From: Schmidtea polychroa
Lineage: Eukaryota
Direction: 5' to 3'
Assembly: GCA_044892525.1 (NCBI GenBank)
Contig: CM097887.1
Location: 87,150,397-87,214,396, forward strand
DNA: 64,000 bases
Part shown: piece after piece, positions 1 to 33,795 of the stretch
Layout: each line of letters opens with the position of its first letter
Numbering within the stretch: position 1 is the first letter of the stretch
Program-made: the position numbers and the translations under genes
Notes under the pieces: model-generated
What the model was told of the DNA's origin: nothing
Seen by the model: the letters and a program-made list of their open reading frames with translations, nothing else
Database searches by the model: none

Positions 1-627
1 TTTAAGCGGAGGGCCCGCAACTCAATCTGGTCTTGAGCATTCTGAAGTTGTAGTTGGGTGATTAACTTCATCTTCTTCTTCATCTCCGCTGGTGGGAACC
101 AGGTGCACTCGAAGTTCCGACAGTGGGCCTTGACTCGTGTCCACTTAGTCCGGTATTCGTCTACCTGTCGTTGTGCCTGTTCCCTATCGGCTCGCATCTC
201 TTCCAAGAGTTTCTGCACTAAACAAAGGTAAGATCAATGATTTTTACATCGACATCGAGGGTCGGGCATTATTATGGGCATTAAGGCTAAAAGAAAGTAA
301 TCCCCTCGTCGTAGTCCTTTGCTATGCGCACCCCAAGACCGAGACCTAGTTGTCTTACTCAACCTATAGGGTTGTTGTCGCTATAGAAATGTGTATTCAA
401 CAATGATGATAGTCCACGTCATGGACATTACAAACAATCCACACAATTAAATTGTCACCGACCATCAAGACACAAACAAACCTTAAATAATTATGATGAA
501 CTGTTAAGGCCTAACATATTTTATTCAATCCTGGATTAAAGAGGTTTAATCCAGTACATAATATCACCTAATACACCCGACACTAAGGTCAGCACAAAAT
601 GATTAGTTTTGATCCCGAGTTTTCCGC

Positions 628-1110
628 CTACTCTCCGAATCCCGCGCTCTCCTTGGTCGAGCGGGTGGACGTTCGCGCGCGTCCGCGTGTCCTTGGTCGT
701 CCTGGTCCTCGTTGAGGCCGTCTTGGGTATTTTAATCCACGCTGAAGAGCCGCGGTCCGTTTCGGGTGACATTGGGCTCGAGCGTAGCCGTCGCAGTCTT
801 CTACCTCGCCAGCCAGAGTCGCTTTCTCGAGCCGGTGTAATCGGTCTATCGCATCCGTCACTTCGTCAAAAGCGTCGATCAAGGCTAACGACGCGTGGTT
901 GAGGTACGGCTCCACCTTCGGAATTACGGGGATCACGTTCTGGTAAGTCCAATCATGGATCTTGTACCAGATCCATCTAGACCTTAGGCGAGCGATTTCC
1001 GATTCTTCCCTCAATCGGACGGCTTCATCTGCCTCTTCGCCGCTACCTCCGCGGTTCCAGTCAGTCGACGAGTGACCTTCTCGTATCTTCTTTGGTTCGG
1101 TACTGAGCAT
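628..1110 (-). CDS. LTR-encoded 160-aa ORF (3' LTR copy), unknown function, basic C-terminus
   Basis: ATG preceded by CTTTTATCATTACAG-CC; locally GC-richer; identical protein in both LTRs. Confidence 0.5.
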   Translation of the reverse strand: MLSTEPKKIREGHSSTDWNRGGSGEEADEAVRLREESEIARLRSRWIWYKIHDWTYQNVIPVIPKVEPYLNHASLALIDAFDEVTDAIDRLHRLEKATLAGEVEDCDGYARAQCHPKRTAALQRGLKYPRRPQRGPGRPRTRGRARTSTRSTKESAGFGE

Positions 1111-2629
1111 GGCTGTAATGATAAAAGAGGTATTAGGCGAATCTTTGTCCCTCTATCTGTGGTCGTTTACTCCAACATGTCTAAACCCCCCATTACGATT
1201 TACATCCAAGCATACTAGGCATTCAATCCCATAGACCAATGATTTTGTATGTGAAGTAGATTAAATTACTAATTAATTTCCATATTGATTTATTTATCCG
1301 ATTAGATCGCGGATTACTAAATTAAATTAAATTTGTACATTGACGGTTGGTAAGTAAATTAAATTTAAGACAAAGAAAAATTAAAATTTCGTAAATTAAA
1401 TTAAGACAAAAATTAGAATTTCGTAAATTAAATCAGAATCGCATATTTCAAAGATTTTGTTTAATTTGATTAAAAATTAAATTTGTTATTCTTAATGTCT
1501 AATATTCTTCAAATTTTGGTTTAACGATAATATGCAATTACTATGCTACTAAGACCTACTACGAGGAGGGACATTACTACATATCGAGAAATTTTACTCG
1601 GTCTCTAGTAATACCTAACCGTAAGGGTTGTGAGTAGCTCCACCATCATCCCAGTTGGATAAGTAAAAGGACAAAAAAAAATTGGTTAGTTTTCCATTTG
1701 TTTAATTTTAGGAATTCGATCCTTCCAGCTTTCAGTCTCAACGAGGGGTGTATTCGGATGAATTCTGCAACAGTCGTGGCCTAATAATAATCTAACGTAT
1801 GCCAATTCCCCCATTTGTGACGCATTTGTGCCCCAGATTATGGGTAACCCCATTCTCGTGTTTATGGATATACATGTGGGGGAATACAGGACAAAATGTT
1901 AATCTGAAGAGGATTTAGTGAGGCTTTCTGCTCATTCCTCTGTCTACATCGTTGTTAAGCATTTTGCGGTGACTGATAATCTTTCCTGTCTATAAGTATT
2001 ATAATTTTATTTAAAAAATAAAAATTTTGTTCTTATTAAATTTAATTGAATAACTCGCTTTAACGTTATGTAATAATTTTTATATGTTTTTGTCAATTGT
2101 TTTCTCTTACATTTACATAATCAACGATTGTAATCATAGGACCCATTACTACTCCTTACTTTTCGCCTATGATCATGAGGTATATGTGTCCTAGCTTGAA
2201 TGGTCGATGTGTGGGATCCATCTTGGGGAATAACAGGGTTAAATTCGCCAAGACATCGGGGTTTTAGTCAAGGATCAGGACTTCCGCTGTCGAGGCTGAT
2301 GGTGATTGGTTCGTTTGCGAACACGCATGCATCGTCCATTTGGTCGGTCAGGGTAATTTCAGTGAGGGCACCCCTTAGTATTCAGGGTTACTTCTATAAA
2401 TAGAACCAATTTTATTGGTTAGAGTTTTCATTAGGGAAAGAGCAATAATTGATGTCGGTTTTGAAGTTTTCTATTAATAGAAACATTTCAGAAAATCGAT
2501 ATATTGGTTGGAGTAAATATATATGGAACAAAGGGGGGTAGGATCATTGTAACTAAATTTAGACCTAGAGGAATCCCAAAGATCGCTAATTAAATAAAAA
2601 AAAATTTGTAATAATTAATTAATAACGCA

Positions 2630-3150
2630 ATGACAAGGGTAGTGATAATAATAGTGGCAATGATAAGAGTGGAAGTGTTAATGGTAATAGCGCTAAATCA
2701 GTAATATTAAGAACATTAATAATGATCATCCTAATAATAATAATAATGACAACAGTGATAGTAACTACAATAATAATCATAACAGTAATAATAATGATAA
2801 TTATTATAANNNNNNNNNNNNNNNNNNNNNNNNNNNNNNNNNNNNNNNNNNNNNNNNNNNNNNNNNNNNNNNNNNNNNNNNNNNNNNNNNNNNNNNNNNN
2901 NNNNNNNNNNNNNNNNNNNNNNNNNNNNNNNNNNNNNNNNNNNNNNNNNNNNTTAATAAGAATAANNNNNNNNNNNNNNNNNNNNNNNNNNNNNNNNNNN
3001 NNNNNNNNNNNNNNNNNNNNNNNNNNNNNNNNNNNNNNNNNNNNNNNNNNNNNNNNNNNNNNNNNNNNNNNNNNNNNNNNNNNNNNNNNNNNNNNNNNNN
3101 NNNNNNNNNNNNNNNNNATACTAATAACAATAAGGTAAATTATAATGATA
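2630..3150. repeat. AAT/ATA microsatellite inside 3' LTR, partly N-masked
   Basis: (AAT)n-like flanks around N runs. Confidence 0.85.
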
Positions 3151-5074
3151 ATAAGTGTGAGTTCATAGTATTATAAGATTACTACGGATGGGGGAATCGT
3201 TTACGGAAAGTTAAGGGTGTTGTTAAGGTACAAACAAAAAACATCTTTAAAGATTTTATATAAGGTAGATTTCAATATATATAAAGGTAAGAATGAACGT
3301 TTTCTAAATGATTTTAGTTTATCATAATATATCATTATATTGAATAAAATTATGAATAATATCAACAGGATTCATTAACATACTGAACAATAGTTTGTGC
3401 AATTAGCCGACTACGAGAGCCTCTGTATTAATTTGAGTCTGGGATATTTCCCGTTTAGATGATCCTAGTGGTCTGTTTCCTATATCAGAATTAAGTGTTG
3501 ATTTTTGGTATGTTGTTTACAGAAAAGTCGAGTTAATTAAAATTTTCCTACTTTCCCGACCCAACTGGATACGGTACGATAGGCCTTATTGTAGTATGTT
3601 TCCCGCGATTACTTTCCCGAAGTTTATTTCGTCCGCATAGTCCCTATGACTATGCCAACTACCGGTATGGGTTTACCGCCCTACTCCTGGTTAGAACCAT
3701 TAGTTCGTGGCGACCTCCGGTTAATAAAAGGGGTTTATATTTTATGCATGTGGGGTCGTAGACCCAAAAATGGTGCATGTAGTCTTTAAATTGGAAACAA
3801 GGCTGATCAACATAGTGACTATAACCCGTTCACAATGCTGGTCACTCTTATTTCGTGATAGTAAGATTAAACAAAACAAAAAAAAAAAAAAAAGTTGATC
3901 AATATAATGAAATGAAATCACAAATAATAAAATAACAATTATAAATTAAATAACAATCATGATAAAATTAATCAATCGTCCTTACAATTAGTGGGTTCCG
4001 AATTTTTCAAGAAAAATTTTGGCATAAAAAGATTAAATTGTGACTAAAATGCGTCGGTATATATACCTATTTTGTACACGTGTATGTATTGATGCATTAA
4101 AACAAACTCGAATTCTTTTTATTCCAGAAGTTTCTATTTTGTAATTTTGATATTTTTAATGGCGATTTTTGCGTCATAATTTTTATTTTTATTTTTAAAA
4201 TTTTATTTCCTAAATATTTTTTGCTAATTTTTCCTCCATGATGGATTTGGAACGGTTCCAGAACATTCCATATTACTTTTAATTCAATTTTTATTTTTAA
4301 CTGATATTTTACGAATTTCTTTTTAAGAAATTTTATTTTTAATACTAATTTATTTATTTTTCTAAATTTTATTGTTTAAGGTAGCTTTTATGATGGTCAT
4401 CGCCATTTTTATAGAATGTTCTGGGTTTTTCTGGAATGTTTTTGCTACTTTTACCATCTTTTAAGTTATTCGAGTTTGTTTTTTGTAACTCTGTGTTTAT
4501 TTGGCTATTTTGAGTTAGATTTTGCATAACTTCTTGCTTTTGTATAATTTTATTTAATTTCTGTGTTTTAGGTTTTTGTTGTTTTTTCCTTTAATTACTA
4601 TTGGTTATTTGGTGTAGTTTTCAATATTTAACTATACTTTTTGCTTTTTGCATGCTGTGTACCTACACATTTCGGTCACAATTAGAAGTTTGGGTCTAGA
4701 AATCAGTTCTAGCCCAACATAAAACACTCGGGGGCCCATAAAATTGCGACCCGCAATTTAAATCACAAGATGAAGAAAATTATTTTTCAGAATACTTGCA
4801 CTATATTACAAGTGCCTACATGCAAATTGGGTCTACGAGCTACAGGGTCGTGACCTCAATACCCACATACATAAAAAGGCTACTATTATACTACATTCTA
4901 CGGATGGGTTGAAAGATGAAGAAAAAGAACGACCGAGGTCGGTCCACATAAAAATAAAATTATCATGCTCAAGAATCAATGTTATTAGTCATAATCAGTC
5001 TCAGTCTTTGAAATCACGATTGTTTGTTAATGTTTTATAATGTCATGAAATGTTTATACTGTCGTGATGTCACA

Positions 5075-6061
5075 TTAATAGAATTCGGTTGTTCGGGATC
5101 TCGTCTCGATGACGGCTCTGGTTTCAATGTTTGGGGAAGATTTGAAGTAGCTTGGTTGGTTCGTTGTTTGGACTAGCTGTTCTTCCATTGGGATACGAAT
5201 ACTTCTTGATTGTTCTTTTAGTTTGAGGGTTTTGTTTCTTCCTTTACTGGAATTGGGTTTGAGTGCAATCAGGCTCAGTACGGTGATGTTTATCATTAGG
5301 CTCGCCGCTAATAGGATCAATATTTTGAGGGATTCAGACTCTCTCGGTTCTATTACTTTGGGTTTGTTCATAATTTCTTTTAATTGGGTTGTATCCGCCG
5401 TTTCTGATTTTTCGGGCTTATTGAATTTGTTTTCTTCTGAGGTGACAACTTTCTTTATTGCTTCTAGGGTTTTAATCATCTTCTCGGAGTTCGTTGGGTT
5501 TTTGTTTATGGTAGTTAGGATTTCCCTTGTCATTTCTTTCAAGGTTTTCGTTACCTCGTTTTTAATGCTGGGTTCCTCTTTGATGATGGAAGTTATTTTT
5601 CCTTTCATTTCCTCCAAAGATTTTACTACTATTTCGCAATTGCTTGAACGTCCATAGGCGGTTGCTGTTACCTGTTGTTTTATTTCCTCTAATATTATTA
5701 CCACCATTCTCATTGCGGCTGGATCTGTTTGGGATTCTCTCTTTGATTTCTGACTTTGACATTGTTTGGCTAATGTTGCTATCTGGGTTCTGATAACTTT
5801 CATTTCTTGTTCTAACATTGTTTTTATTGTCTGAGTCATTTGCACTTCCGTTGATCCTTCAGTTGTTGGTGGACATTGCGAACATTGCAACTTGATTTGT
5901 TCGCATTCCTCATTGGGTTTTTCGCAGATTGATTTAAAGCTACTACATGTGCTATCTTCTCTACGGTATGGGTATTCTTTTTGGCATCTGATCATTGATT
6001 CTTCTGCTTGCAGGGTTCTTGGCAATGCCATTATAATCATCACCACAATTAGGCTTCTCAT
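5075..6061 (-). CDS. Type I membrane protein with one TACI/BCMA-like Cys-rich domain (TNFR-like)
   Basis: Signal peptide, CQKEYPYRREDSTCSSFKSIC...C, helical stalk, TM LKILILLAASLMINITVLSLIAL, tail containing PMEE. Confidence 0.6.
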   Translation of the reverse strand: MRSLIVVMIIMALPRTLQAEESMIRCQKEYPYRREDSTCSSFKSICEKPNEECEQIKLQCSQCPPTTEGSTEVQMTQTIKTMLEQEMKVIRTQIATLAKQCQSQKSKRESQTDPAAMRMVVIILEEIKQQVTATAYGRSSNCEIVVKSLEEMKGKITSIIKEEPSIKNEVTKTLKEMTREILTTINKNPTNSEKMIKTLEAIKKVVTSEENKFNKPEKSETADTTQLKEIMNKPKVIEPRESESLKILILLAASLMINITVLSLIALKPNSSKGRNKTLKLKEQSRSIRIPMEEQLVQTTNQPSYFKSSPNIETRAVIETRSRTTEFY

Positions 6062-10052: not shown

Positions 10053-11477
10053 CTATCGTATTTCTATTGTTGGTCCTTCCTCGTCTAGTTCGATTAGGAA
10101 GAATATAGTGTCCTTTTCTATGTAGGACCCGTCATTAAACTGGTATAGCTGCATAAACTCTGCTACTCCTACCGCAGGATTAACCTCTGTAATCGGTTTA
10201 TTCCATGCTGGACTTGATGCTCGACAGCACATTATATGTGTCTTTTTTGATCCCAAGAGAGATATTTTTAATCTATGTCGGAATGGCCATGCTATTAGGT
10301 CGTCAAAATCTCCTTTACAGATTTGCATATATATGGCCATGCACCGATCTTTAAACTTTCCCTCACCATTTGGAAACCATCTCAATTTCATCTTTTATCC
10401 ATGTTTCTTGGCGTAGAATGGTTTGCTCACTATCGTTGTCTGGATTCCTTGCTTTGCTCGCTCCATTATTTCTGTTATTCCTTGGATTTTCCACATATAT
10501 GGCAATATTGGTAGTTCCTCTGTTGTCAGTTCCTTTGCAGTCCATTTGGTTTGTAGTTTAGTTACTTCGACTAATTTGTCGTCTAATTTCAACATCCTTT
10601 GTCTTACGGCTTCTCTCGTATTTTTGAAGCTTTCCTGTGAGCTCAGCATTTCTTTTATCATGATTTTATGTGATTTGAGTTCGTCTTTAACATCTTCGAT
10701 TGCCCTTGCTGTTAACTCTATTGCTCTCATCATCTTTTGCATGTGCTCGAATGTATTCTCCTCCACATGCTTCTTCATTTCTTCTGCTGGTAATTGTACT
10801 CTACAATCGAATGTTACCATTGGGCATTTTATCGTCTTTCTCGTGCATATCTCCCAATGTTCATTTAATCTGACGTTGTTAATTTCTCCACACTCGTTTG
10901 GGCATCTCCCTGTATATTCGTCGCAAATCCGTCTTTCTACTGCGTTTCGATGTTCCATTTCGATTTCTCTCCAATTAGCAGTTTCTCCGCAAAATTCGCA
11001 TTTTTCCGTTCGCGCTTCGCATTCCCCTTTATGTTTGGTTTTCTCTTTTCGTAAAAACTTTACCGTACATGCTTCGCATTCCAATTCTAGATATTCGCAT
11101 ACGTCTGTATGGGCTCTTAACTCCTTTACTCGACCTGTCCATTCGCATGACCTTTGGGTGCATCTTATTTTCACTTCTCTGATTTCTCGGTTCATTGCTC
11201 TATCCGGTATCGTGCCAGTGGGAACCAACTTAAATGCTTCTCCACATCCTGGACAAGTTTCTCGCTTTAGCTTGGCTAATCTTATAGCACACCCTCGGCA
11301 TAATCTACACCCGCATCGAGTTTGACTTGCTCCAATCAGTAGTCTTCTACATGCTGCATCGGCACATAATAGTCTCTCTTCGAACTCGTCCGGCTTGGCT
11401 TGATATTTTCTCATCAATTCATAGTTAATCTTTTGTTCCTCTGTTTCTCTCCGGTTCTCTTCCGCTTTGTTTTGCAT
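10053..11477 (-). pseudogene. TRAF-like adaptor/E3 (RING, TRAF Zn fingers, coiled coil, MATH) with one in-frame TAA at 10395-10397
   Basis: Reads PFYAKKHG*KMKLRWFPNG, where TRAFs have PFY...GYKM.LR..PNG; both halves are in the same frame; the MATH has the DDLIAWPF motif. Confidence 0.9.
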
Positions 11478-12170: not shown

Positions 12171-15100
12171 TTATACTAGTGTCGCCATGGGGCCGGAATG
12201 CAGCGTGCGCATTCCCCCATATCTTTCGTCCGTTAGTCGGTATATATCGACTTCGTGTGTCCATTCGTTAGGTGTGGGTATTTTTGGTAGTTCCGACATC
12301 CACAATCCGCTGGATTTGGGATCTCTTACCACCTCGTACTCTTCTAGATTCAGATTTTCTGTTGGAATACCGTATTCGAATTTTTCTACCTTGGGCCATT
12401 TTCTTCGGTTCCCGGGTTTTTGTTTACAGCTTTTGGTGGTTCTTATCCATTGGATCATTGCTAACGCTATTATCGTACTTACTATCGCGCTAGTTATCCA
12501 TATCATCTTTGTGATTATCGTTGTTCCATTATTTGCTTTTTCTGTCGTTAACATTATACTACCTGTGGTATTCGTTTCTGGTGCTTTGGTTTTCTTGAAA
12601 GCTTGATGTAGTCGTTCCTTCTCCTTCTCTGTTAGGTGACTGTGATTTTCTCGTTTCTCTCCCCCTTCTTGGTCTCGGGGTATCCATGGTATGTTTATTA
12701 ATTGGGCTTTTTGTCGAGTTATTGGTTGACATACGCTGGTTCCTCTTCCTTTCTTAAGGATACATACTTGGTATCGCTCTTTTCGTTTTCCTGTCTCCAT
12801 TTTAACGTCTGCACCTTGGTCTATCGGTGTTGTTGTACAGTCGATTATTCCCGTCTTATCCATTACACATATCCTTATGATTGGTTCTCCTTCTTGGTTT
12901 TTGACTGTAATTACCTCTTCACCTTTCTTGTTGAGGTTAATAGTTATCTGCACTTCCCGTCTTTCGTCTTTAATTACTTCGTTAATCCATGTTGTTGTTG
13001 TTATTAATTCGGTTTGATTTAGCTCTGTTGTTGTTTTTGTACTAACTGATTTCTTGGGCTTCTTGGTTGTTTTCTCCGTCAATGGACCTTGTTTAATTGC
13101 CATACTCCTTGGTTTGTCTTTTCTTGGTGCAGTTCTTGTTCCTTTACATACTATTATCCCTTGTGTTCCTGCGCATACCACAGTAGGGGTATTTGGTTTG
13201 ACCTCTCCCCAGAAGAATTTGTGATCCTGTGTCATATCAGTTACTATGCATATATCTCTGTCTTCTCTGATGCATACATGTGTAATTGATCGACTCCCTT
13301 TGTCCTCTATTTCGATATATTCTTCCAGAATGTTAAGTTGAAAATGTACTCCGGTTTCATTGGCTCTTTCTAGTTCCATTTCCTCTGTTGTTATGTCTAT
13401 ACAGATGTCATAATCTCCGCATAGCCCGGGGTCTCTTTTTTGGCTGCTAAAGATCTTTCCTTTTGTTATCGATCTGAAATCACAACTTACTCCTGTTCCT
13501 TCCATTAGTTGCACACATATTCCGACGGCGTTTCCGTCGTAATCGCTGACTTTTATCATAAATACTTCGCCTTCTTGGAAAGCTTCTCTTACGATTCTCA
13601 TATTTTTTGTTTCCGTTAAACAGATAGATGTTAATATTATAAATATTCTTTGTAGTAGGATTGGCTGGATTTGATTTCGAAACACTATGCTATGTAGTGG
13701 GGACTTTCGTTTTTTGTTTTCTGTTTTGTCGAATCCTTGATCTTCACCTCGACATTGGTCATCTTCGTCCTCTTCCAACTCCTCATCATCATCCGTTGTT
13801 TCTCCGCCCTCCGGATTTTGTTCTCTGTCGTTTTCCTCTGGGTTGTTATCGTTATCCCCCATCCTTTCGTCGTCGTCATCGTCGTCATTCCTCTCACCCG
13901 GGGTTTTCCCAAAAATGTCGTCCTCGACATTTGTCGCTTTGATCATCTCTTCGTATTTTTTAATTATTTCTTTTTTATCGTTGTGGATACTTTCTCGTTC
14001 TTCTTTGGTTCCTTGATATTTCCGTTGTTTCCGGTGCCATTCCCACACTAGTATTTCTAGTTGCTTTTTCATCGTATGTGCTTTTGTGCATTTCCACCAA
14101 TTACCTGTCAATTCTGCTCTATTTCTTTGTAATATTGCTTTAATGGTTTTTGGCATTGGTGGTCTTGAGTATATGGCGCTTCTTAGTACGATATTTTCGT
14201 TGTTCTGAAATTGATTTATATCAATTACTTCCGCTTTTAATTCGTTTTGTTTCCATTTGATTAACATTGCTGCGGTTCTGTCTAAGTTTCCTCTGATGGC
14301 TTCCAGAATTGTTTCAATGCTCTGTCTCAACACCTCAGCCTCTTCAGCGGTTGCATTTCCCGTGATAAAGTTTAGTATACTAGGTCTTTTTGACCTGACG
14401 GCATAACGTAAGATGGTTCGTTGTTTGTTATCTTTTTCTTTCAACGTGGATCCCGTTCTCAATAATTCTCTGAGTACTTCTCTTGACGCGCCTATTGCTA
14501 TGGCTTTCATCAGTGGAGTTTTTCCTTTACTGTTTTTGACGTTTGTTGATTGTTTGCAGTTTTCCATTATTCGTATAATCTCTAATGCTCGTTTTTCTTG
14601 TCCTGCTTTCACTGCATGATGGATTGGCCAGTTATTACTCAAATCACTTGTTAGGAACATGATTGGTAATCTCCGGATTAGTTCATATATTTGAGTCGGT
14701 ATTTGTAATCCTTCGGCATATCTTCGTCCTTTCGCATATCTTTCTGCTACTAACACTAGTTTGCCCAATACTTGGTATTTATTGGTTATATCGGCCCATT
14801 CTGGTACAATTTCTCGTGCTATTTTTACTGTCATATTCCATGTTGCTTGGCTCCTTGCCATTGCGTCAGCTTCGCTTTCTGCTTCGGTTCCTTTATGGGC
14901 GCTGCTGCTTGTTTCTCCCCTCAACATGAATATCCGTCTTGTCTGTGATCTAGTTAATCTACCGCTTACTTCTGGTTCCGTTGTGGCATTTGTTTGTGAT
15001 CTCGTGATTATCTTCCTTGTTTCTGGGTCTTTAGTGGCAGTTTTCGCTACTGCTTTACATCGACATGTATTAACGTAAATGGGTCTAATTAGTGGGTTGT

Positions 15101-16151
15101 TAACCAACTTTACTCTAGCGTTGTTCTCGTTTACATAAATGATTTCATATGGCCCTCTGCCATTACGTTGTAATTTCTTTGCTGTTCCTGGGATTAATTC
15201 GGGTGTTTCTATAATAACCCAATCTCCGACTTTAAATTGATGGTTTTGCACGTTCTTCTTTTTATCATGCAATTCCTTATAACTTTCTTGGTTGAATCGG
15301 ATGTTCATCCCTGCGGTTTTCCATATTTCTTGCATTCTCTCTTTGAACTTTGTCACATAATCATCTATCTCCATATATTGTGAGATTGGCGGTTGGTATT
15401 CGAGATCCATTGGCATGTTGCATTCCCTTCCGTACATGAGTTTAAACGGACTCATTTTCGTTGCTGAGTGTATTGACATTCGGTAAGCCATTAGGCACAA
15501 CTTAATATATTCATCCCAATCCTTTTGATGTTTACTTACATAATTGGACATCATGTCTATTAGTATGCCGTTAAACCTTTCTGTCTGCCCATTCGTTTGC
15601 GGGTGGTATGGCGAGGTTCTCAATTTGGCAATTCTGAAGTAGTTTGTTACTTCATTTATTATCTCGCTCATGAAGTTAGTTCCTTGGTCTGTTAAGATTT
15701 GTTTTGGAGTTCCATACCTGCAGCAGATCTCTTCTACTAATATCCTTGCAACCGTTCGTGCTTTTTGGTCTGGCATCGCAAATGCTTCAGGGAACTTAGT
15801 CAGATAATCAGTTATTACCAATATATACACATTTCCACTGTTAGTCTCTGGTAGTGGTCCAACTACATCCATTGCAATCATTGTCATCGGTTCTGGCGGT
15901 ATCGGCATTGGTTTCAATGGCGGCTTTAGTTTACTGCCCGTTGTTTTTCTGGTTGCGCATATCAAGCAGTTCTTTATCCATTCTTTCACGTCATCGCTCA
16001 TATTTGGCCAGTAATATTTCTGTTTGAGCCTTGCTTCTGTTTTCTTGGCTGACATATGTCCGCCCAATTTACCGTCGTGGTATTGAATCATAATTTCTTT
16101 CCGTCTACTTTCTGGTAGACACATCAGTCGTTTGTCGCCATCCATTACCAA
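12171..16151 (-). CDS. pol: Polyprotein C-terminal part: integrase, ankyrin repeats, acidic linker, second type I membrane protein
   Basis: HHCC zinc motif, D-D(35)E core (AMDVVG, TDQGTNF, QTERFNG), GPY, KGKTPLMKA ankyrins, TM near the C-terminus; joins the upstream ORF across an A8 run at ~16186-16193. Confidence 0.92.
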   Translation of the reverse strand: MVMDGDKRLMCLPESRRKEIMIQYHDGKLGGHMSAKKTEARLKQKYYWPNMSDDVKEWIKNCLICATRKTTGSKLKPPLKPMPIPPEPMTMIAMDVVGPLPETNSGNVYILVITDYLTKFPEAFAMPDQKARTVARILVEEICCRYGTPKQILTDQGTNFMSEIINEVTNYFRIAKLRTSPYHPQTNGQTERFNGILIDMMSNYVSKHQKDWDEYIKLCLMAYRMSIHSATKMSPFKLMYGRECNMPMDLEYQPPISQYMEIDDYVTKFKERMQEIWKTAGMNIRFNQESYKELHDKKKNVQNHQFKVGDWVIIETPELIPGTAKKLQRNGRGPYEIIYVNENNARVKLVNNPLIRPIYVNTCRCKAVAKTATKDPETRKIITRSQTNATTEPEVSGRLTRSQTRRIFMLRGETSSSAHKGTEAESEADAMARSQATWNMTVKIAREIVPEWADITNKYQVLGKLVLVAERYAKGRRYAEGLQIPTQIYELIRRLPIMFLTSDLSNNWPIHHAVKAGQEKRALEIIRIMENCKQSTNVKNSKGKTPLMKAIAIGASREVLRELLRTGSTLKEKDNKQRTILRYAVRSKRPSILNFITGNATAEEAEVLRQSIETILEAIRGNLDRTAAMLIKWKQNELKAEVIDINQFQNNENIVLRSAIYSRPPMPKTIKAILQRNRAELTGNWWKCTKAHTMKKQLEILVWEWHRKQRKYQGTKEERESIHNDKKEIIKKYEEMIKATNVEDDIFGKTPGERNDDDDDDERMGDNDNNPEENDREQNPEGGETTDDDEELEEDEDDQCRGEDQGFDKTENKKRKSPLHSIVFRNQIQPILLQRIFIILTSICLTETKNMRIVREAFQEGEVFMIKVSDYDGNAVGICVQLMEGTGVSCDFRSITKGKIFSSQKRDPGLCGDYDICIDITTEEMELERANETGVHFQLNILEEYIEIEDKGSRSITHVCIREDRDICIVTDMTQDHKFFWGEVKPNTPTVVCAGTQGIIVCKGTRTAPRKDKPRSMAIKQGPLTEKTTKKPKKSVSTKTTTELNQTELITTTTWINEVIKDERREVQITINLNKKGEEVITVKNQEGEPIIRICVMDKTGIIDCTTTPIDQGADVKMETGKRKERYQVCILKKGRGTSVCQPITRQKAQLINIPWIPRDQEGGEKRENHSHLTEKEKERLHQAFKKTKAPETNTTGSIMLTTEKANNGTTIITKMIWITSAIVSTIIALAMIQWIRTTKSCKQKPGNRRKWPKVEKFEYGIPTENLNLEEYEVVRDPKSSGLWMSELPKIPTPNEWTHEVDIYRLTDERYGGMRTLHSGPMATLV
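14355..14640 (-). other. About 3 ankyrin repeats
   Basis: NNWPIHHAV, KNSKGKTPLMKAI, KDNKQRTILRYAV. Confidence 0.8.
15030..16100 (-). other. Integrase domain
   Basis: H-H-CxxC, DDE, GPY motif. Confidence 0.95.
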
Positions 16152-19100
16152 TAGCCATTCTTTCTCGATTGTATATCTTTGACGATTTTTTTTCCATATG
16201 TTCTTTCAATCGATCATCGTTGTTGAATATTTTCATATCGTTTTTATCCAGGAATTCGATTATTAGTTTCAATTCGCTGTCTTCCTTTTGTTCGTTCTTT
16301 AGATTGGTAAAATCGATATCTTCCGCGATTATCATGCATATTCGCCTGACGTCATGATCCATGAGTTCTTCAAATACGAATCTCGACATGCAATCCGCAT
16401 TTGCGTTTGCTTTTCCTGACTTGAACTTGATGTATGGGGAATATTCTTGTAATTGCATTGCCCATCTCATTAATCGACTAGATGCTTCTTTATGTTGGCC
16501 CAACCAAACTAGAGGTTGATGGTCCGTAGTAATAATTATCTCGTGTCCCCATAATAAATATTTGAAATGTTTTATCGCCTGAATTATTGCTAAGGCTTCT
16601 CTTTCTGTGACCGAGTAATTCTTCTCGTGTTTTTTGAACGTCTTGCTATAATATCCGATGACTCTTTCTCGTTTCTCCTCATCCCATTGTCCTAGCACAG
16701 CTCCTGATGCATATCCACTTGCATCGGTTGCTAATAGAAAGGGCTTCTTGAAATCTGGATGTATTAAGATAGGTGAGGCTATTAACTTGTCTCTTAGCGA
16801 CTCGAACGCTATTTGCTGTTCTCTATCCCACAGAAATGGAGTGTCTTTTTTCGTTAGTTCCTGAATTGGTTTTGCTATAGTTGCATAATTTTTGATGAAC
16901 TTGCGGTAGTATCCGCATAATCCCAGAAATTCTTGTACTTGAGTCACGGTCTTCGTTATCGGACAATTCTTTATCTTTTCAACATTTCTCGGATCTGGTT
17001 CCTTTCCTTTTGCCGACACAATATGTCCTAAAAATGTGACTCTCTCCTTTGCCCAATCGCATTTTGACGGTTTCAATTTCAGCTTCCATTGTTTCAGTCT
17101 CACGAATACGTTCCTGATGTCGATTAAGTGTTGTTCGAACGTACCTGAATATATTAGCAGATCATCAATATACACCATACATTGTTTAATTCCGTGTGTC
17201 ACAAAGTTCATACACCTTTGAAACGAAGCAGCTGCGTTTGTTAATCCAAATGGCATCTTTTTAAACTGATATAAATCTTTTCCTATGGTAAAGGCTGTCT
17301 TTTCTCGGTCTTCTTCTTTAACTTTAATTTGCCAGTATCCGCTCTTTAGATCTAAAGATGTAAAGTATGCTGCTCCATGCAACATCTGTAACATTTCGTT
17401 TATGTCTGGCAGTGGATATGTATCCCTTTTTGTTACTGCGTTCAACCTCCGATAATCAATACAAAATCTCTGTGTACCGTCTTTCTTTTTGACCATTACT
17501 ACTGGGAATTGCCATGGTGAACAGCTAGGTTCTATTACTCCGGCATCTAACATCTTTTGTACTTCTTCCTCTGCTACCGTTTTTTGTGCTTCGGCTAATC
17601 GATATGGTCTTAACGTTATGGGTGTCTCATCTGTTAATGGTATAATGTGTTGAGTTACATCGCTAGTACCCAAATCCAAATCTGAAGCCGCAAAAATATT
17701 TTTAAATTCAATCAGTAGTTGTCGGAGTTGTTCCTTTTCGTCTTCATTTAGGAGTTCGCTATCGATGGTCCATAATTCTTTTTCGTCTGCTCCCTCGCTT
17801 TTTATCTCCGGCAGCTCAATGTTCATCATTGGTGTGAGTTTTCCAAGTCTCTCGTTTTCGTAGATTACTTTATCTTCCTCATCAAAATTGGTGATGTTGA
17901 TGGGTATCTCGTTATCCTCATTTATACTGACAATTTCTCTTGCCAATGGCAGCTCCCTTCTCTTCTCGAATTTTTGACTTGGTTCAAATATCATATCTCC
18001 TTTGGCTTCGTTATCGACCTTGACATAACATATTGTCTGGGTACGTGCTGGTATTATCATTTTTTCGGAGCATCTCACTTCTGTTCTCATTGTGCATATC
18101 TGTCCAGTTTTATCTTTTAATTTCATGGAACTCAAATCAATCACAATTTCTTTCAATAATTCCGGCATTACATCTGTTCCAATTATACATGATACGCTTA
18201 GCTGTCTAATGACTGCGAGGTACGTTGTAACTTTAACCCCTTTGTATTCGATCGTTGACCATACTCTTCCTACTACCGCTATGGATTGTTTGCTGCATGT
18301 TATTACATCCATGGTTGTTTCCTCAATGCATGGCCATAGTCTTCCTGGTAGCATATTCATATTTATTGCTGAGATATTTGCTCCGGTATCAATCATTGCA
18401 TCCATCTCTATTCCGTTTACTTCGACCGTGATAGTTAATGATGGTCCTGCTGGTGTCTGCAATACCGCGATCGTTCGTGTCTCCACCTCTTGCCCCACAT
18501 TTTTAACTGGCTTGATCATTGTTGGGTCCAGTGCTGCCCAATTTGGTTCATAAGCCATTGGATAAATATTCGGTACGGGTAATCTTCCGGTTCCCATTCT
18601 TATCCGTTCTCTCATTGTTCCTGGTCGTCGCATTGGTCCATTAGTTGGTGCCTGTAAATATGGTGATCCCCATGGTTTCATTTTTTCGTTTTCCCAAGTG
18701 GCTGTATTTTTGTTTATCAACATTACTCCTCCTTGATTATTATCGTCGTCGTCGAAATCATCATTGTCATCACTATCATCGTCTCGTCTGAGATTCATCC
18801 ACTTTTTCCACTTCCCGGTTCTTTTCGCTTTCTCTTGAGTTCTTTCTGCTTCTAATCTCATTATCACTTTGAACTTACGTCCGACTTCTTCGTCTGTTCC
18901 TTTCATTTGCGTTAATATTTTCAACAATCTTTTTATTCGATGAATATCCTTTGAGTGTCCATGCAACACCATTGTTTTCGCTAAGAACGGTAAGAATCCA
19001 ATTGCAAGTTTCCAATTTACTTTTCTCTCGCGCTTATAGATGTCAAAACATGCTAGCATCTGAGTTAGTATCACTCTAACTATTTGTATTATCAGAATAA

Positions 19101-22100
19101 TTCCGAGTATTCCTGCCATCATTTGGCCAAATACTAAAAATCTACCGCACATAGCCTTCATCATGTTTGCTGTTGCTTGTTGGTAGTGACTTGGTGATAA
19201 TAATAGCTCGTAGTTCGGGCTCTCCCCATAATTATTTCCTCCAGAAATAGTCACTATATTTGATAAGATTGCTTGTCTTTGCGCTGGGAATAACAGGTGG
19301 GCTCTTGCTGATTCGAGATCTTTTGGTGTATATAATCCACTCTGGGATACGTCTATCGGCTTGAACTCTAGTTCTGTTGTTAGTTCCGTCAATCCAAATT
19401 TCTTGGGTGTTACTACGATTGTTTTACTTGGGAATTGAACCCATTGTCCATCTTCTTTTTCATACATTGGTCCATATGCATTACTACAATTAAACAGATT
19501 TGGTTGAAACCCTACCGGGTTCATTACCCTAGTGACTGCTTGCACAAACCTGGGTTTACCTTCGTGAATAATTTCGAGTTCGTTTGCACACTTATCTCTT
19601 GGTATTGTAGGGTTTTCTGGCAATCTTGCCATTATCTTTTTGCATTGGTAGGTGTACATCACTTCGCCCACGATTCGTCCGAAATATCCTTCCTGTAATG
19701 GTAGTAACGGAATTGCGTTATCTGGATTTGTAATCGCCATTGCTAATTTTGTTCTCAGTATTTCTTTGTTGAGCAGGCAATCGTTTCTTAACAGGTCATG
19801 GTAGACTTTTTCCGTGGATGTTAATCCTCTGTGATATAAGAAATCCATCTTATTATTAGCGTATAAATATAGTTTGACATCCTTTTCGCTTAGTCTTCCG
19901 ACTGCATTTGCTAGGGTTCTCCGCGACAAGTAGATCCCTTTATAATTGGTGCTGATCACCATCTCATCGCATTTACTCACCATTTTGTTCTTTATGAACC
20001 TCATTCCTATTCCATCGTCTTTGGAGATTATCGCTGTGGGTGTTACTTCCGATTCCAATTTCGATGTTATTACGTCTTCTCTGAATCCTTTCCTTGCTCT
20101 CAACTCTTCCATCGCTCGTTTTTCTGCTTCTCCTTTTGGTTCACTGTATACTTTCCCTTGGATTTCTTCGAATATTGCTGTTTTGAGTAACATTAGTCGA
20201 CATACTTTCTGATCCGCATGGTATACCAGAGTTGACATCCCGGTTGAACATGATCGATCTGATGCGAGACAACTTGGGTATTTCTTCATTGCTTGCGTGT
20301 CAGGGTCGAAATAACCTTGGTACCTTTCTAATTTAGCTTCGTAGCTTTCTATTACAACCACTCCACTAACCAGTTGTCCGTTCAAGGTGTATGTTCCTGT
20401 CTCACATGTTCCGTCTCCTTTAGTGATTCTGCCTGCCGTATACACGCGAGTTGTTTTTATTTTTCCTGGTTCTGCAGCAATTTCAATCCCTTGCCTTAAG
20501 TGGATTCTCCCCGATCGGAATCCTTCCTCGCATTCCCCTCTTGATAGTAATATTACTGTCGATTCCAATCCCGGTTCTATGATTGTTGAGTGGGAGGATG
20601 AACCGCAGTGATGTGCAAATATCTTTCTGGTTACCGTACATTCTTGGACCATGGTTTTGATGAAATCTGCTTCTTGATATACGTTATACGAGACTGATGC
20701 CATGACCGTTTGTAATTTTCTTGGGTTTGCTGCTTTACAGTCTTCCGTATCCTTTAATGAATATTTCTCATGGATTTTTATGTTGTCGCAGTCGTATACT
20801 GCAAATGACTCCGTTCCTTTGATACACATCATCCATATCAGTATCGTGGTTATTATGGCGTTCATTCCCTTTCGGCTTGCTCTTGGGTCGTTCATATTGA
20901 TTGTTCCTTCGAATTCCGTTAGCAAATCGCGTAACTTTGCTTGCATCATTTCCGTTTGATCTTTCTTCCCAGTTGATTCGATGAAGTTTCTCCATCCCCC
21001 TTGTTCAAGTATATATGGTTCTATTGATCGTTTGATTATTTCTGTTACTGTGAATTCATAACCAGTTGCGTTATATTTTGGCATTCGTTTTTTATATTGA
21101 CCAATGACGTTATACATCAAATATGCTAATCCCACTAAATATCGATTTTGGTCCTCTGATCTGCTTAACAGATGTTCCACAATTAATCTGAGTTCCACGG
21201 GATCCTTTAACGTTAATCGAATTTTGTTATCCATGATTTTCATTATTATCGGTTTCAATACCGCCCATAATTGTTTGGCTTCGGTCGGGATATGATCCTT
21301 CCTCATTACTCTTTTCACATCTGGATTTGCTAACGCTAACATGTTAGCAAATAAGTCGTTTATCCATCGTGTCCCTTGTTCCCGGACGTTTGTTTTCACT
21401 TTGACTTGTTTTACTAATGCGCTTAGTTTATCCATTTTAGTTTTTACCTGTTCCATTTGTGCTTGAATTTTGGATTTTGGTTCCACCTCTGCTTTATCTG
21501 TTTTTGGTCTTCCTCTTGTTCGTCGATCCATAGCCGTTCCGGTTTCTTTCCGTTTTGGCGGATTGTAAGTTGTATCTTTTGACGTGGTCGCTCTTGGATC
21601 TACTCTCCAGTTACTCCATTCATCGGTTGTGGTTACATCTTTATTGGCACTTCCTCCCACATTATCTAAATCCGTCTCGGCTTCTGTTGTTTCCACTGGT
21701 TGTCTTTGCGCACATACAAATCCATTTAGATCATCAGTTGTTGGTTCACCTTCGTCGATAAATAGATCTCCCGATTGCGATGCTCTCATAATCTCGCCTG
21801 CTTCTACTATCTCTTGTAATTCGTCCAGTATTTCGTCTTCTCCTGTTGTTTCGATCGTCACTTCACTAACCGCATTCGGAACTTCTGGTGTGTCTAAACT
21901 TCCTGGTTGTTGTGTAGATGATTTGTGCTTTATTTCTCTTCTCCTTAATTCTCTCCCTGCAATTTTACTCACCGTTAATCTGTTCACAATTTCTCCTTGG
22001 AGTGGTGTCACACCAATTTCGATATCGTCGTCTAATGATCGTCCCTCGTGTTGTAAGTGGAATGGGAGTTCATAAGGTATTCTCTTTTTAACTTCCCTGA

Positions 22101-25100
22101 CCTTGGCTGTTGTGTAGAATTCCTTTTCCATTGGTTCAAAATCTGGCAAGAATATTTTTAGTTGATATTTCTCAGGTGAGTTTTCGGCCCACTCTTGTTG
22201 TTTCCATTTCCGGATGATTTCACCAAACTGTTCAGGGTACCATACGTATACCCGTCGATATTCTTCAATCGCTTTAACGATTTTTCGTAGGTTTTGAATC
22301 CTTTTGCATGATTCGGCTATCCATTTTGCTAGTTCTACTACCGCTCGTCGACGATTTTTCGCACCGTTTTGTAATATCTCCATCAATTCCTTACATTTTT
22401 GTGCTTCCAACAATGTTGCTGCTTCCTCCTCATCTGCGTCGGCGTCTATTGGTAGATGTCCTGAATCAGGCACTCTTCTCCTCATCATACAGATTCTCGG
22501 TTGATTTTCTGGTATGTTCAGTCGTTGGTTCATTTCTTGTTCTGTTTCAACTTCTACTCTGATCTGGATAGCATTGTCTTTCACAAATATTGATTGTTCA
22601 TTCTCAATGTAATTTAGACGTATTAATTTAGACGTCCCAGAGGCGATATTTTCTAATGTTGTTGGTCGTTGGTAGCAGGTGCTTCTTGGGTCTGGTTTCA
22701 TTGTTTCTTTATGTACGTTAAGGTTATCTTTCAGTGGTTCGATCGCTATCGTTACCTTTCTGCTAAACGGCCATGGTACCTTATCGTCATAATTCCCTTT
22801 GCAGATGATGAAGAATGCCGACACATAATTTCCTTTTCCTACCCCATCTCCGTTCGGGTATATTCGCAATTTCATTTTGTACTCACCTAATCCTGAGTAG
22901 AACGGTGGACTTACTAATCGTGTGATTTTCTCTTCCCTTGCTGATTTTATCTTTTCCATCCAATTCTCAATTTTCCACGTGAATGGTGCTAACCTTACCG
23001 GTTCTCGTATATCCTCATCTTCTCCTGATTGTAACTCATTTTGGAATTCTTGTGGTAATATATCCTGGTAGGTATCGATTGGTTTCTCTCTTACCCATAC
23101 TGCTGCGATCTCTTCGGGTATATTATCTATCCAATTTGGTTCCAACTTTTGCTGCTCCCAATCCCATCGAGCTTCACTTTCGATCCACACTTTTTTCCAT
23201 GGTATCAGTTTGCAATCTTCGTCATTGAAGGCTGCTACTTTTAGTTTATCATCCTTTAGCCAATGGTTATAAATATCTATTATTCGATCCATCTTTGCTC
23301 TCATCCCCCATTGGAATCTTTTAATTTGTTGCTCTGTTTTGGTGGCGTTTTTGTGTCCACCCGATGGTTCATCCATCGCGATTATATTGATGACGGCTCC
23401 ATCTTCCCAGATTCCTAGTTCGTAAATTACAGTTCGGTCTCCTCTTTCTAACATATGCCGGTTGTACATTATTATCACATCTTCGATCATTCCATCCTCA
23501 CTATTTTCTCGAGCTTTTTGGATGATCTCTTGATCTATGATTTGCACTAACTCGTCAACTTGGCAATCGGGGTCAACTTCTATTATTTGTTTCTCTTCAT
23601 TTGGCAACTTCACCTTTATTTTTATCGTTTCTCGTTCGCATTTGGTTCTCTCGTATTCTCCGTATTTAGATATCAATTCTGTCGCTCGTTTATCTTCGAA
23701 TCTCATAATTTCCGTGTCTCGTACGTCTTTGACAAATTGTTTCATTAGTTGTGGCCATCTTTCTCTCAGTCTATTAATATATTTTCTTGCCTGATCGATA
23801 GCTTGTTTAACCAAGATTATTTGGTTTTCTTTCATTATTTTTCGTTCGATCTTTTCCAATTCTGGTTCCACTTCATTGTTAAACACTTGTTGGATTTTCT
23901 GGAACATTTCTGCCACTGATTCGTCGTCTCTGGTTTTCTCTAAGGTTAAGATGTTAGTTTCGTTTGGCCCTATCATCGCATCTACCAAATGTATGCCCAT
24001 TTTAAATTTGTAACCATCGACATATAATTGTTTATTTTTATGGCTCGTTCCCATTTTTTCCTGTACCCAGTTGTACAGTTCATCGGTATTTGTTCCTTTT
24101 AATTCAATAGTCTGTATCTGAATCTCTGGGTGTTGAATACTTACTTGATATTGATCTGGGCCTGCTTCCTTTAGTTTCTCTTTATATTTTGTTGCTAAAT
24201 CTTTCCATGCTGCCGTTATTATACCTCCTTCACACTGGTATACTTGAGTTATAAGTTTTACGCATTTTCTATATGTTAACTCGTTGATGTAGCTCTCATT
24301 CCGCTCTATTTCTGTTACTGTGTCGAAAATTTCCTCAAATATCTCCTCATCATCTTTTTCTATCATTGATTTCATGTCATCATTTTCACTCTCATCGCTA
24401 CTTTGAGGTGTTTCACTGTTTGGAGGTGTTTTCGGTTCGTTGTTTTCCTCACTTGACTGAAATAATTCGCCTCCCAGGCTACTCACCTCACTTTTCTCAT
24501 CTTCCTGATCCGTCTGATCACTCCGCATTTGTCTCAACATGTTTATTTTAGCTTTGGTATGTGGTTCTTTCTTTTCGAACCACTCATTTTTCCTGAACCA
24601 ATGCTCTTTCACTTTTTCTTTAATTTGTTCCTCAGTTAATGTAGGGTTTTCGTTTTTGATTCTGTCTTCGATTTTTTGTAGTAGTACCCTCTGAATTCGA
24701 TTTTTTGTAACTATCTCATTGCTTTTTGGTTCGTCTTTACCCTCATCTCTTTTTTGTCTTTTTTCTTTCTCCTCTTGGGTAAATTCTTTAATCAATTGTA
24801 TTTTCTCTTCACTGCTTAATTCTGTTCGTTGGTCAATCTCTTTTTCTTTTGTTATTTTTATCTCCTGGTTTATTATCAGATCACTCCCTTCGTTGTTAAC
24901 ACACTGCTCCGCAGTGTGCGATTCCTCTTTATTTGTTAACCTCATCATATTTATTCTTCCGGGATTCGCTTCCCGTTGTTTCCATCTTTCTTGAATTTCT
25001 CTGGCTTCTTCGTTTTGTAATCTTTGCCATTCGATTCGTTGTTGGTCTTGTTGTTGCTTACTTGGTTGTTTCCGGATTTCTTCGGTGCTCTGCATCATGT

Positions 25101-25335: not shown

Positions 25336-26345
25336 ATCCTTGCTCTATAACATTCATTGCTCCAATGCCCTGATCGTTGGCATATGTTGCACGTTCGATT
25401 GTCGTTGTTCCTGAAATTATTAGTGAAATTTTGAATATTACCTCCATTGTCTTGGTTTCTCGTTTGTGGGGTTTTGAACAACTGTTGCGATCCTGGGATG
25501 AATTGATTCATTACTGGATTTGCATTATTGACTTGGTTGTTTGTGGTTGTTGTTGTTGTTGCTGGAGCTGCTGGAGCTGCTGTCATTGCTGCTACTTGTA
25601 TTGGTGTTAGGTAAGTTTCACATTTGTTGGCTATTTTTAGTGCTTCTTCTAGCGTCTCTGGTGCTCGACATCCCAAGGTTGCTCGTATATCTTCTCGTTT
25701 CATGCCATCTACGAATACGGCTATTATCTTGTCTTCCGGAACTGGCTGATTTGAATCGAAGGCTTCTCGTGCTAGTCGTCTCAATTCGCATGCGTACAGT
25801 GCGTTGGATTCGTTATATTTCTGCTTTCGATGCAGAAAGTCTAACATTTTTCGATTTCCCTCTTTTTCGGTACCGAATGTTTTTATTAAAAACTCCTTGA
25901 TCTCTTTCCACGTTCTCAACTTTGTTGCATCACATTTCGCCTCCAAGTATACATCTTGGGCGCTTCCCTTTAGATATAGGGGTATTCGTTCTCGTACGAC
26001 TATGTCTGGCCAGTGACATATCGTAATGTATACTTCAAATTCTTTTATAAATGTTTCTAGCTGGTTTATATTTCCATCGAATGGCTCTCCTCGAAATTTC
26101 TCTCTGAATTCTCCAATGTTGACGTGCACATTACTTGTTTCCGGTGGGTCCGTTACCCTTTGTTCATTCGTGTTTCCGTCCGACATTATCTCTTGGCACA
26201 GTACGGTTATCTCTGTTGTCTCGGATATATTTTCCTCTTCTTCAGTTGATTCGACGTCGCTTATTGGATCTAATTCGGTTCGTTTGAAATCGTCGCTGTT
26301 CTCAAATTCGTTAGTTAAACTGTCTGATTCAAATACTGTTTCCAC
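25230..26345 (-). CDS. gag: Gag (capsid plus two CCHC knuckles); true start uncertain
   Basis: PFDGN...FIKEFE...LYLKGSAQDVY capsid motif; CNICQRSGHWSNEC and CQKCGRRGHTENIC. Confidence 0.92.
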   Translation of the reverse strand: METVFESDSLTNEFENSDDFKRTELDPISDVESTEEEENISETTEITVLCQEIMSDGNTNEQRVTDPPETSNVHVNIGEFREKFRGEPFDGNINQLETFIKEFEVYITICHWPDIVVRERIPLYLKGSAQDVYLEAKCDATKLRTWKEIKEFLIKTFGTEKEGNRKMLDFLHRKQKYNESNALYACELRRLAREAFDSNQPVPEDKIIAVFVDGMKREDIRATLGCRAPETLEEALKIANKCETYLTPIQVAAMTAAPAAPATTTTTTNNQVNNANPVMNQFIPGSQQLFKTPQTRNQDNGGNIQNFTNNFRNNDNRTCNICQRSGHWSNECYRARMCQKCGRRGHTENICRGPTMPTIVTSLDTWQENAR

Positions 26346-30206: not shown

Positions 30207-30536
30207 AATTTGTATGGTGGGTTACAGGTACTGTAAATCTTTTTACCTCCTCATGCTGTTTCCAGCGTAACCCAGTATACAATTCATAGCTGACCACTTG
30301 AAACCCGTTGAGCAATCAACGTTGGTACTGTATCAAGGGTTTGGGCACTAGCAAAAAGTGAGCATGCTTAACATACTATAATTGTCTAGCACCCACTGGG
30401 GTTCACGGACTGCCGTTAGAAGGCCTATGTCCGATTTCTTTTCGTCCCCGTTACAACAATTAACATTATAATAAAAGGAAATCAAAATGCCCGCTATGGA
30501 CGCACTGTGAAGATTTATTTTGACAACATGAATCGC

Positions 30537-31001
30537 TTATCGTGTGCTGGTCGGTTCTCTTGGCGTAGCCTCTGATTCAGTAGCATGGAGAGCTAATTGG
30601 GCCTGGCTGGCCTGCCTTATCCTCGCTCGTGCCGCTTTTCCCGGCCGAATCTTCTTCCTTGGGGTTACTATTGTGGGGGCAGGTTCCTTTGGTCGATGGA
30701 GCAACTCATCTAAAGGCCGGATCTTGGCAATGACCTCTCACTCCAGCTCCTGTTGATGCACCTTGGCTCCCAGTTCCCTCACCCTTAAGCGGAGGGCCCG
30801 CAACTCAATCTGGTCTTGAGCATTCTGAAGTTGTAGTTGGGTGATTAACTTCATCTTCTTCTTCATCTCCGCTGGTGGGAACCAGGTACACTCGAAGTTC
30901 CGACAGTGGGCCTTGACTCGTGTCCACTTAGTCCGGTATTCGTCTACCTGTCGTTGTGCCTGTTCCCTATCGGCTCGTATCTCTTCCAAGAGTTTCTGCA
31001 C
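30537..31001 (-). pseudogene. Second LTR-encoded coiled-coil ORF, 155 codons with one internal TGA (30738-30740)
   Basis: The frame stays open for about 66 codons past the TGA (EVIAKIRPLDELLHRPKEPAP...); no ATG; preceded by CTTTGTTTAG; partial copy at 1-218. Confidence 0.4.
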
Positions 31002-31410
31002 TAAACAAAGGTAAGATCAATGATTTTTACATCGACATCGAGGGTCGGGCATTATTATGGGCATTAAGGCTAAAAGAAAGTAATCTCCTCGTCGTAGTCC
31101 TTCGCTATGCGCACCCCAAGACCGAGACCTAGTTGTCTTACTCAACCTATAGGGTTGTTGTCGCTATAGAAATGTGTATTCAACAATGATGATAGTCCAC
31201 GTCATGGACATTACAAACAATCCACACAATTAAATTGTCACCGACCATCAAGACACAAACAAACCTTAAATAATTATGATGAACTGTTAAGGCCTAACAT
31301 ATTTTATTCAATCCTGGATTAAAGAGGTTTAATCCAGTACATAATATCACCTAATACACCCGACACTAAGGTCAGCACAAAATGATTAGTTTTGATCCCG
31401 AGTTTTCCGC

Positions 31411-33409: not shown

Positions 33410-33762
33410 GCAATGACAAGGGTAGTGATAATAATAGTGGCAATGATAAGAGTGGAAGTGTTAATGGTAATAGCGCTAAATCAGTAATATTAAGAACATT
33501 AATAATGATCATCCTAATAATAATAATAATGACAACAGTGATAGTAACTACAATAATAATCATAACAGTAATAATAATGATAATTATTATAANNNNNNNN
33601 NNNNNNNNNNNNNNNNNNNNNNNNNNNNNNNNNNNNNNNNNNNNNNNNNNNNNNNNNNNNNNNNNNNNNNNNNNNNNNNNNNNNNNNNNNNNNNNNNNNN
33701 NNNNNNNNNNNNNNNNNNNNNNNNNNNNNTTAATAAGAATAACCATAATAATAATGATTATG

Positions 33763-33795
<33 letters not shown>

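Follow-up and report, generated by a model that had tools for sequence, protein, structure and literature searches.

A predicted membrane protein with a strongly constrained cysteine domain in a giant LTR retroelement of Schmidtea polychroa: a possible TNF receptor-like mimic

Gene content of the element and architecture of its last ORF

The window, a stretch of 64,000 nucleotides from Schmidtea polychroa that was analyzed as a whole, carries on its minus strand an LTR element of 36.25 kb, which is giant and Burro1-like by its layout and is flanked by a target duplication of 4 bp (Table 1). Based on the Pfam assignments, the gene order is polyprotein, TRAF, BIR-RING IAP, two coiled-coil-like open reading frames (ORFs) and, in last position, an ORF of 328 aa. 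The original prediction had described this ORF as retroelement-borne, which is confirmed by its location within an element whose LTRs are more than 99% identical. In the window copy, the polyprotein region is divided over three frames and the stand-alone TRAF gene over two pieces. In other copies of the element, open frames of the former reach 4791 codons, and in several of them the latter forms a single 474-aa frame.

Table 1. Features of the LTR element, including the parts of the 328-aa protein, in window coordinates
Feature	Window positions	Strand	Details
3' LTR	1..4719	-	start lies outside the window, 569 bases to the left; identity to the 5' LTR above 99%
160-aa ORF with Arg-rich end, in the 3' LTR	628-1110		same ORF as in the 5' LTR
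328-aa ORF, predicted type I membrane protein	5075..6061	-	final accessory gene before the 3' LTR
Predicted cytoplasmic tail, aa 269-328	5078..5257	-	PMEE at aa 291-294
Predicted transmembrane helix, about aa 245-267	5261..5329	-	central Asn258; hydropathy up to 2.59
Linker and long helical stalk, aa 65-235	5357..5869	-	heptad-like hydrophobic pattern
Six-cysteine domain, aa 20-64	5870..6004	-	C26-x12-C39-x2-F42-x3-C46-x6-C53-x6-C60-x2-C63
Predicted signal peptide, aa 1-19	6005..6061	-	hydropathy 1.42
Accessory ORF, 255 aa	6146..6913	-	coiled-coil-like, no family; ORF and Pfam scan
Accessory ORF, 532 aa	7053..8651	-	coiled-coil-like; ORF and Pfam scan
IAP gene (BIR and RING), 392 aa	8734..9912	-	Pfam BIR E 5e-16, RING E 2e-12
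Stand-alone TRAF gene (zinc fingers, MATH)	10053..11477	-	Pfam
Accessory ORF, 151 aa	11567..12022	-	no family; ORF and Pfam scan
Gag, MATH, Monjiviricetes-type fusion glycoprotein, protease, RT, RNase H, integrase, ankyrin	12171..26186	-	Pfam
Polyprotein MATH	about 22534-22998	-	TRAF3-like, E 1.4e-30
Tandem repeat in the leader region	27265-27582		132 bases, 2.4 copies
160-aa ORF with IAP-type RING	28995-29477		between the 5' LTR and gag
5' LTR, about 5.5 kb	30215..35682	-	
160-aa ORF with Arg-rich end, in the 5' LTR	31411-31893		same ORF as in the 3' LTR

The element shares with Burro1/GYPSM1, a giant gypsy-like LTR element of planarians, a size of over 30 kb, an env gene between gag and pol, and a cargo of MATH/TRAF, BIR, ankyrin, and Smc-like genes (PMC6431247). 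The ORF1 of Burro1, with about 4,800 aa, is also close in length to the 4791-codon open frames found here. The element is therefore Burro1-like, an assignment of architecture and not of comparison with a Burro1 sequence. Cell-death genes are a known cargo of Burro elements, and a protective effect of the Burro1 IAP on planarian stem cells was reported (Lee et al. 2026, as cited in PMC13465017). In the accessible text of the Burro1 description, no membrane or TNFR-like ORF is named (PMC6431247).

All six accessory ORFs have an AG at most 5 bases upstream of their ATG (positions 6062, 6914, 8652, 9913, 11478, and 12023, minus strand), compared to a background of 0.28 per site. For the five accessory ORFs that were checked, almost every copy retains this AG, and it directly precedes the start codon of the 328-aa ORF in 49 of 49 copies. 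These AGs are likely splice acceptors, which suggests that the six ORFs are made from separate spliced messages. Parts of the 328-aa ORF are covered by contigs of sequencing runs that are only guessed to be RNA, and this coverage is no evidence of expression. In one such run (X4), seven contigs finish in a T run at about window position 4331, which would imply a poly(A) site as early as about 390 bases inside the LTR. A seeming LTR-to-IAP junction was rejected, having no acceptor at the site and an equal-depth contig on the LTR itself. Relatives of the LTR-internal 160-aa ORF, at 48-72% identity, are present in many other LTRs.

The 328-aa ORF probably encodes a single-pass type I membrane protein with its cysteine domain outside, a topology that was read from hydropathy. 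The signal peptide and membrane helix named in the original prediction were both recovered in this way as hydrophobic stretches, the former varying in sequence between copies and retaining its hydrophobicity. The peptide it quoted corresponds to aa 26-46 and has the C-x12-C-x6-C spacing, with Phe42 located three residues after C39. Its count of six domain cysteines (26, 39, 46, 53, 60, and 63) is likewise correct, and two more cysteines (101 and 142) are found in the stalk. It had left out the long helical stalk, the x6-C-x6-C-x2-C end of the domain, and the missing Asp-x-Leu motif. The residues between C26 and C39, corresponding to the putative hairpin loop, read QKEYPYRREDST and contain no Asp-x-Leu. 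C60 and C63 may form other or interchain bonds. The domain is separated from the membrane by ~180 residues that are predicted to be helical where modelled; in the AlphaFold2 model, which covers aa 19-143, helices span aa 68-111 and 114-137, with block pLDDT values of 77-95 in their cores.

Strong purifying selection on the cysteine domain

Across the genome (G000), 828 candidate copies of the ORF were found. The best 122 were scored and are full length with 94-100% identity; 118 of these have no internal stop, in a sample that is biased to intact copies. More diverse copies were sampled through matches to the IAP gene. Here, the ORF is present in 49 of 52 loci, including 39 full-length copies without gaps (37 distinct), of which five contain a stop codon. 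In 20 stop-free copies, dN/dS equals 0.27 for the whole ORF. By part, the ratio is 0.53 for the signal peptide, 0.38 for the stalk, 0.20 for the tail, 0.14 for the membrane helix, and 0.04 (dS of 0.20) for aa 20-66, the cysteine domain.

Among the 37 distinct copies, the variants shared between copies in the cysteine domain (aa 20-64) comprise 11 synonymous and no nonsynonymous changes, in contrast to 32 and 57, respectively, in the remaining ectodomain (Fisher P = 4e-5, which is only approximate because the copies are not a random sample and may recombine). Changes private to single copies were also found in the domain, namely 11 nonsynonymous ones and one stop, in line with what is expected after insertion. 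Phe42 is present in all 37 copies and every domain cysteine in at least 36 of them, so that the cysteine pattern, on the conservation of which the original prediction had staked itself, is conserved among these copies. In the tail, the shared variants amount to 7 nonsynonymous and 9 synonymous changes, and its constraint is not significantly different from that of the stalk (P = 0.17).

The cysteine domain is thus under strong purifying selection, and selection has maintained the ORF as an accessory gene of the element, located alongside its TRAF and IAP genes. A frozen outer domain likely faces one unchanging partner, which is not necessarily a TNF-family ligand. Judged by its codons, this 45-residue domain would mark a conserved binding partner, whatever its fold.

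Resemblance of the outer domain to TNF receptor domains

The original prediction identified the domain as a cysteine-rich domain (CRD) similar to those of TACI and BCMA. In this family, 12 residues separate the first two cysteines, a C-x3-C occurs late, and six cysteines form three disulfides. The domain of the 328-aa protein has a spacing of x12, x6, x6, x6, and x2, with Phe at the position of the third family cysteine; given the spacing after C46 (x6, x6, x2), only its first half fits TACI/BCMA. When the domain was shuffled 200,000 times, C-x12-C-x6-C was recovered in 0.6% (strict) to 3.2% (loose) of the shuffles, and in 9% if a first gap of 11-13 was allowed. The cysteine spacing alone is weak evidence, because many small cysteine families could have been its target.

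An ESM Atlas feature search with aa 20-68 returned TACI-CRD2 (0.83) and BCMA (0.79 and 0.76) as the best three of 30 matches, the TACI-CRD2 match sharing 153 of 256 features with the query. The ten best family matches all fall within one family or clan, and with the TACI, BCMA, and BAFF-R families taken out, the search gave no usable match for aa 20-68. These look-alike families are those of the hypothesis that had been fixed in advance. Atlas scores below 0.9 serve as leads only; a score of 0.8 is attained by one in three shuffled proteins, scores for protein parts lack calibration, and the model may be reacting to the very cysteine spacing on which the original prediction was based.

Pfam gave no match for the whole protein or for four cuts of the domain at E values up to 10, although HMMER filters remove most Pfam matches above 0.1. 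Similarly, the ORF was not among the matches when the genome was searched with PF09305, PF09257, and PF00020. No homologue was found among 1.84 billion representatives (full HMMER scan), in three word-based protein searches that covered proteins of near and shorter lengths and a query of aa 20-68, or among viral and metagenome contigs, and sequences from the PDB gave only chance matches (best E of 0.2). These negative searches are not decisive, because Grindelwald, a genuine TNFR, is described as having poor sequence homology and no Asp-x-Leu (PMC8024323) and is missed by PF00020 according to a preprint (10.1101/2024.07.27.603686).

An AlphaFold2 model of the domain, built without an alignment (mean pLDDT of 65), shows helices at about aa 37-46 and 50-60 and no beta-hairpin or strand. 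The modelled helices agree with the second module of Grindelwald, Fn14, BCMA, and TACI, which is a helix-loop-helix (PMC8024323). Fold searches with two single-sequence models found no match, which says little because their pLDDT was 65-68 and the domain has only 51 residues. The AlphaFold2 model, itself weak, thus has helices after C39 and no hairpin.

The 328-aa protein has in common with TACI, BCMA, and BAFF-R a small cysteine-rich outer domain and one membrane helix, in addition to the Atlas likeness. However, these receptors are described as type III proteins that lack a signal peptide and bind their ligand via Asp-x-Leu at the hairpin tip (PMC5360319, PMC8024323), whereas here a signal peptide is predicted and Asp-x-Leu is absent, and there is a stalk of ~180 aa. 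There is also no match to PF09305, PF09257, or PF09256. The predicted signal peptide, missing Asp-x-Leu, differing spacing, and stalk together place the protein outside TNFRSF13/17, leaving a possible looser single-CRD likeness. Grindelwald and Fn14 are likewise single-domain receptors that combine a hairpin with a helix-loop-helix (PMC8024323), but Grindelwald has eight cysteines and a C-x3-C-x11-C-x3-C module, in contrast to six cysteines with a different spacing and no sequence match here. Of the TACI/BCMA-like CRD that was originally proposed, the C-x12-C-x6-C spacing stands, with an Atlas score of 0.83 as a lead, while the lack of a Pfam match, of Asp-x-Leu, of type III topology, and, in a weak model, of a hairpin speaks against it. 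Homology of the 328-aa protein to TACI/BCMA is not established; that it works like a single-CRD TNFR is plausible.

No host donor gene was identified by the genome searches with PF00020, PF09305, and PF09257, which produced 8, 1, and 3 sub-threshold matches, respectively. Of the eight PF00020 frames, six were translated. Two of these (L093 and L094), which lie near each other at about 78.91 Mb of G000:C3, have the appearance of exons from an ordinary multi-CRD host TNF receptor, with a best E of 0.03 that falls short of the Pfam cut-off, and do not resemble the six-cysteine domain. In addition, neither tblastn with the domain as query nor a scan for cysteine patterns revealed a divergent relative in 174 loci (1.28 Mb), and no homologue was present in the stretches fetched from element families reached via the fusion protein, Bcl-2, and the LTR ORF. 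A search for TNF ligands with PF00229 had no match and is uninformative, since its controls were silent too. A flatworm survey reported TNF ligands from five free-living species, though not from every one, and a single NGFR-like receptor in each species; the accessible text of this survey names neither Schmidtea nor Dugesia (PMC7519573).

TRAF docking and candidate functions

The PMEE sequence in the predicted tail is kept in 36 of 37 copies and fits the TRAF consensus (P/S/A/T)-x-(Q/E)-E, which is also present in the tail of BCMA (PMC5360319). By chance, the consensus turns up in 27% of shuffled tails (5.9% if Pro is required), and the ectodomain of the 328-aa protein contains three more matches. 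Modelling of tail residues 281-312 with the polyprotein MATH of the element in ESMFold2 resulted in an ipSAE of 0.43, compared to 0.02 for the best control, with runs agreeing on at least 80% of contacts and a partner pLDDT of at least 46. Among 78 solved pairs, 51 attain the ESMFold2 mark, as do 2 of 108 mismatched ones; passes at 0.60 or under account for only 5 of the 78 solved pairs and for all 4 mismatches that passed. The score lends weak support to docking, because peptides are uncalibrated and solved TRAF-peptide complexes may have been memorized.

The polyprotein MATH shares 44-45% identity with two TRAF loci in other parts of the genome and keeps the Arg, Tyr, and Ser residues that we take to line the peptide groove. 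In the stand-alone TRAF, the groove positions are changed and vary between subfamilies, making it a less likely partner of the tail. Within the MATH of this gene (window 10053-10391, L013-L031), the subfamily differences are mainly found at groove-lining positions, and its dN/dS of 0.28 is the highest among the neighboring ORFs.

We tentatively favor, with slightly less than even confidence, a TNFR-like receptor mimic that acts as a single-domain TNF receptor. The protein would reside in the plasma membrane, presumably at the cell surface, with an outer domain that would adopt a hairpin-plus-helices fold closed by C26-C39. The stalk and Asn258 would cluster or oligomerize the protein, and PMEE would recruit a TRAF, with the polyprotein MATH or a host TRAF as a more probable partner than the stand-alone TRAF. 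TNFR-TRAF-cIAP signaling is known and forms the basis of the IAP recruitment step, in which TRAF docking would engage IAP-dependent survival signaling in the element-carrying cell.

A parasite-encoded, receptor-level handle on TRAF, NF-kB, or death signaling is likewise provided by cytomegalovirus UL144, the poxvirus Crm decoys, and EBV LMP1. These are carried by large DNA viruses of vertebrates, whereas here an LTR retroelement also brings its own TRAF and IAP. The element and viral TNFR mimics are already known, and a TNFR-like gene on an LTR retroelement may be new. Our literature search returned no report of such a gene in Burro or other LTR retroelements, although the texts or supplements of the main Burro papers may describe the ORF.

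In a wider reading, the element would encode a complete TNF-receptor survival circuit, with single-domain receptor, TRAF, and IAP adjoining, and the receptor gene would have been captured from an invertebrate. Pro-survival signaling would then start at the membrane, as in EBV with LMP1, with every tier encoded by the element, and the donor of the TACI/BCMA/Grindelwald-type receptor would have been lost or gone unrecognized. We consider it unlikely that this combination holds as a whole. If true, the receptor tier would join the loose inhibitors of the Burro cargo into a pathway that could sense or mimic an outside signal, and it would hint at a flatworm lineage of single-domain TNF receptors, besides the NGFR-like receptors that were the only ones in the survey (PMC7519573).

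Alternatively, although this leans toward the improbable, the ORF could encode a virus-type accessory glycoprotein for attachment, receptor blocking (superinfection exclusion), or particle assembly. Its cysteine domain would then bind a conserved surface protein of the host, and its likeness to TACI would come from nothing more than a generic disulfide hairpin. The element encodes a fusion glycoprotein and no named attachment protein, and the long stalk would hold a small head off the membrane. Moreover, a frozen domain fits any conserved receptor partner, and all profile searches were negative. Additional support comes from a second high-copy giant family (150 scored matches), which was found via TRAF matches and carries a TRAF and two related coiled-coil ORFs. 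In 17 of its 21 loci, the last ORF is predicted to encode a type I membrane protein, in which no more than two ectodomain cysteines are invariant and the six-cysteine domain is missing, so that ending in a membrane protein gene may be common among such elements in general. However, homology between the last ORFs of both families, plausible by eye, is not significant: it failed in BLASTP, hhalign gave an E of 0.34, and in a shuffle test 294 of 500 shuffles scored as high. The Atlas search, which named only TACI/BCMA-type domains, and the weak support for MATH docking of the tail also argue against this accessory glycoprotein.

The last ORF of the second family (L156:3344-4012, L175-L194) is 184-222 aa long, with subtypes that are only 40-50% identical. 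Conserved features of this ORF are the membrane helix, a C-x5-C pair, and a single Glu in the tail, which mostly belongs to a [P/S]-x-E triad. At L156, no IAP lies between the TRAF and the coiled-coil ORFs. The six-cysteine domain and an IAP occur together in one of the two families, a sample too small to count.

Distinctly unlikely is a TNFR-derived decoy or dominant-negative protein, the outer domain of which would trap a death or immune ligand of the host, or a host receptor, as its tail soaks up host TRAFs without signaling. Viral TNFR decoys are common, and the Atlas and selection evidence would suit one. Furthermore, Pfam found no death-domain family in the 60-aa tail, and the genome contains many TRAF loci outside the Burro1-like family. 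On the other hand, Asp-x-Leu is absent, the TRAF and IAP of the element itself are better suited to active signaling, and flatworm TNF ligands were reported in five surveyed species only, with no Schmidtea or Dugesia among those named in the accessible text (PMC7519573). A passenger or chance frame without function is extremely improbable: it would fit the empty homologue searches and the stops in 5 of 39 full-length copies, but is largely refuted by the codon pattern (dN/dS of 0.27 overall and 0.04 in the domain, approximate P = 4e-5) and by the AG before the start in 49 of 49 copies.

Among the other mobile elements encountered, a multi-copy element (L056:4792-9674) carries a Bcl-2-like ORF beside ATPase-like and integrase-like genes and, by eye, looks like a Polinton or adintovirus.
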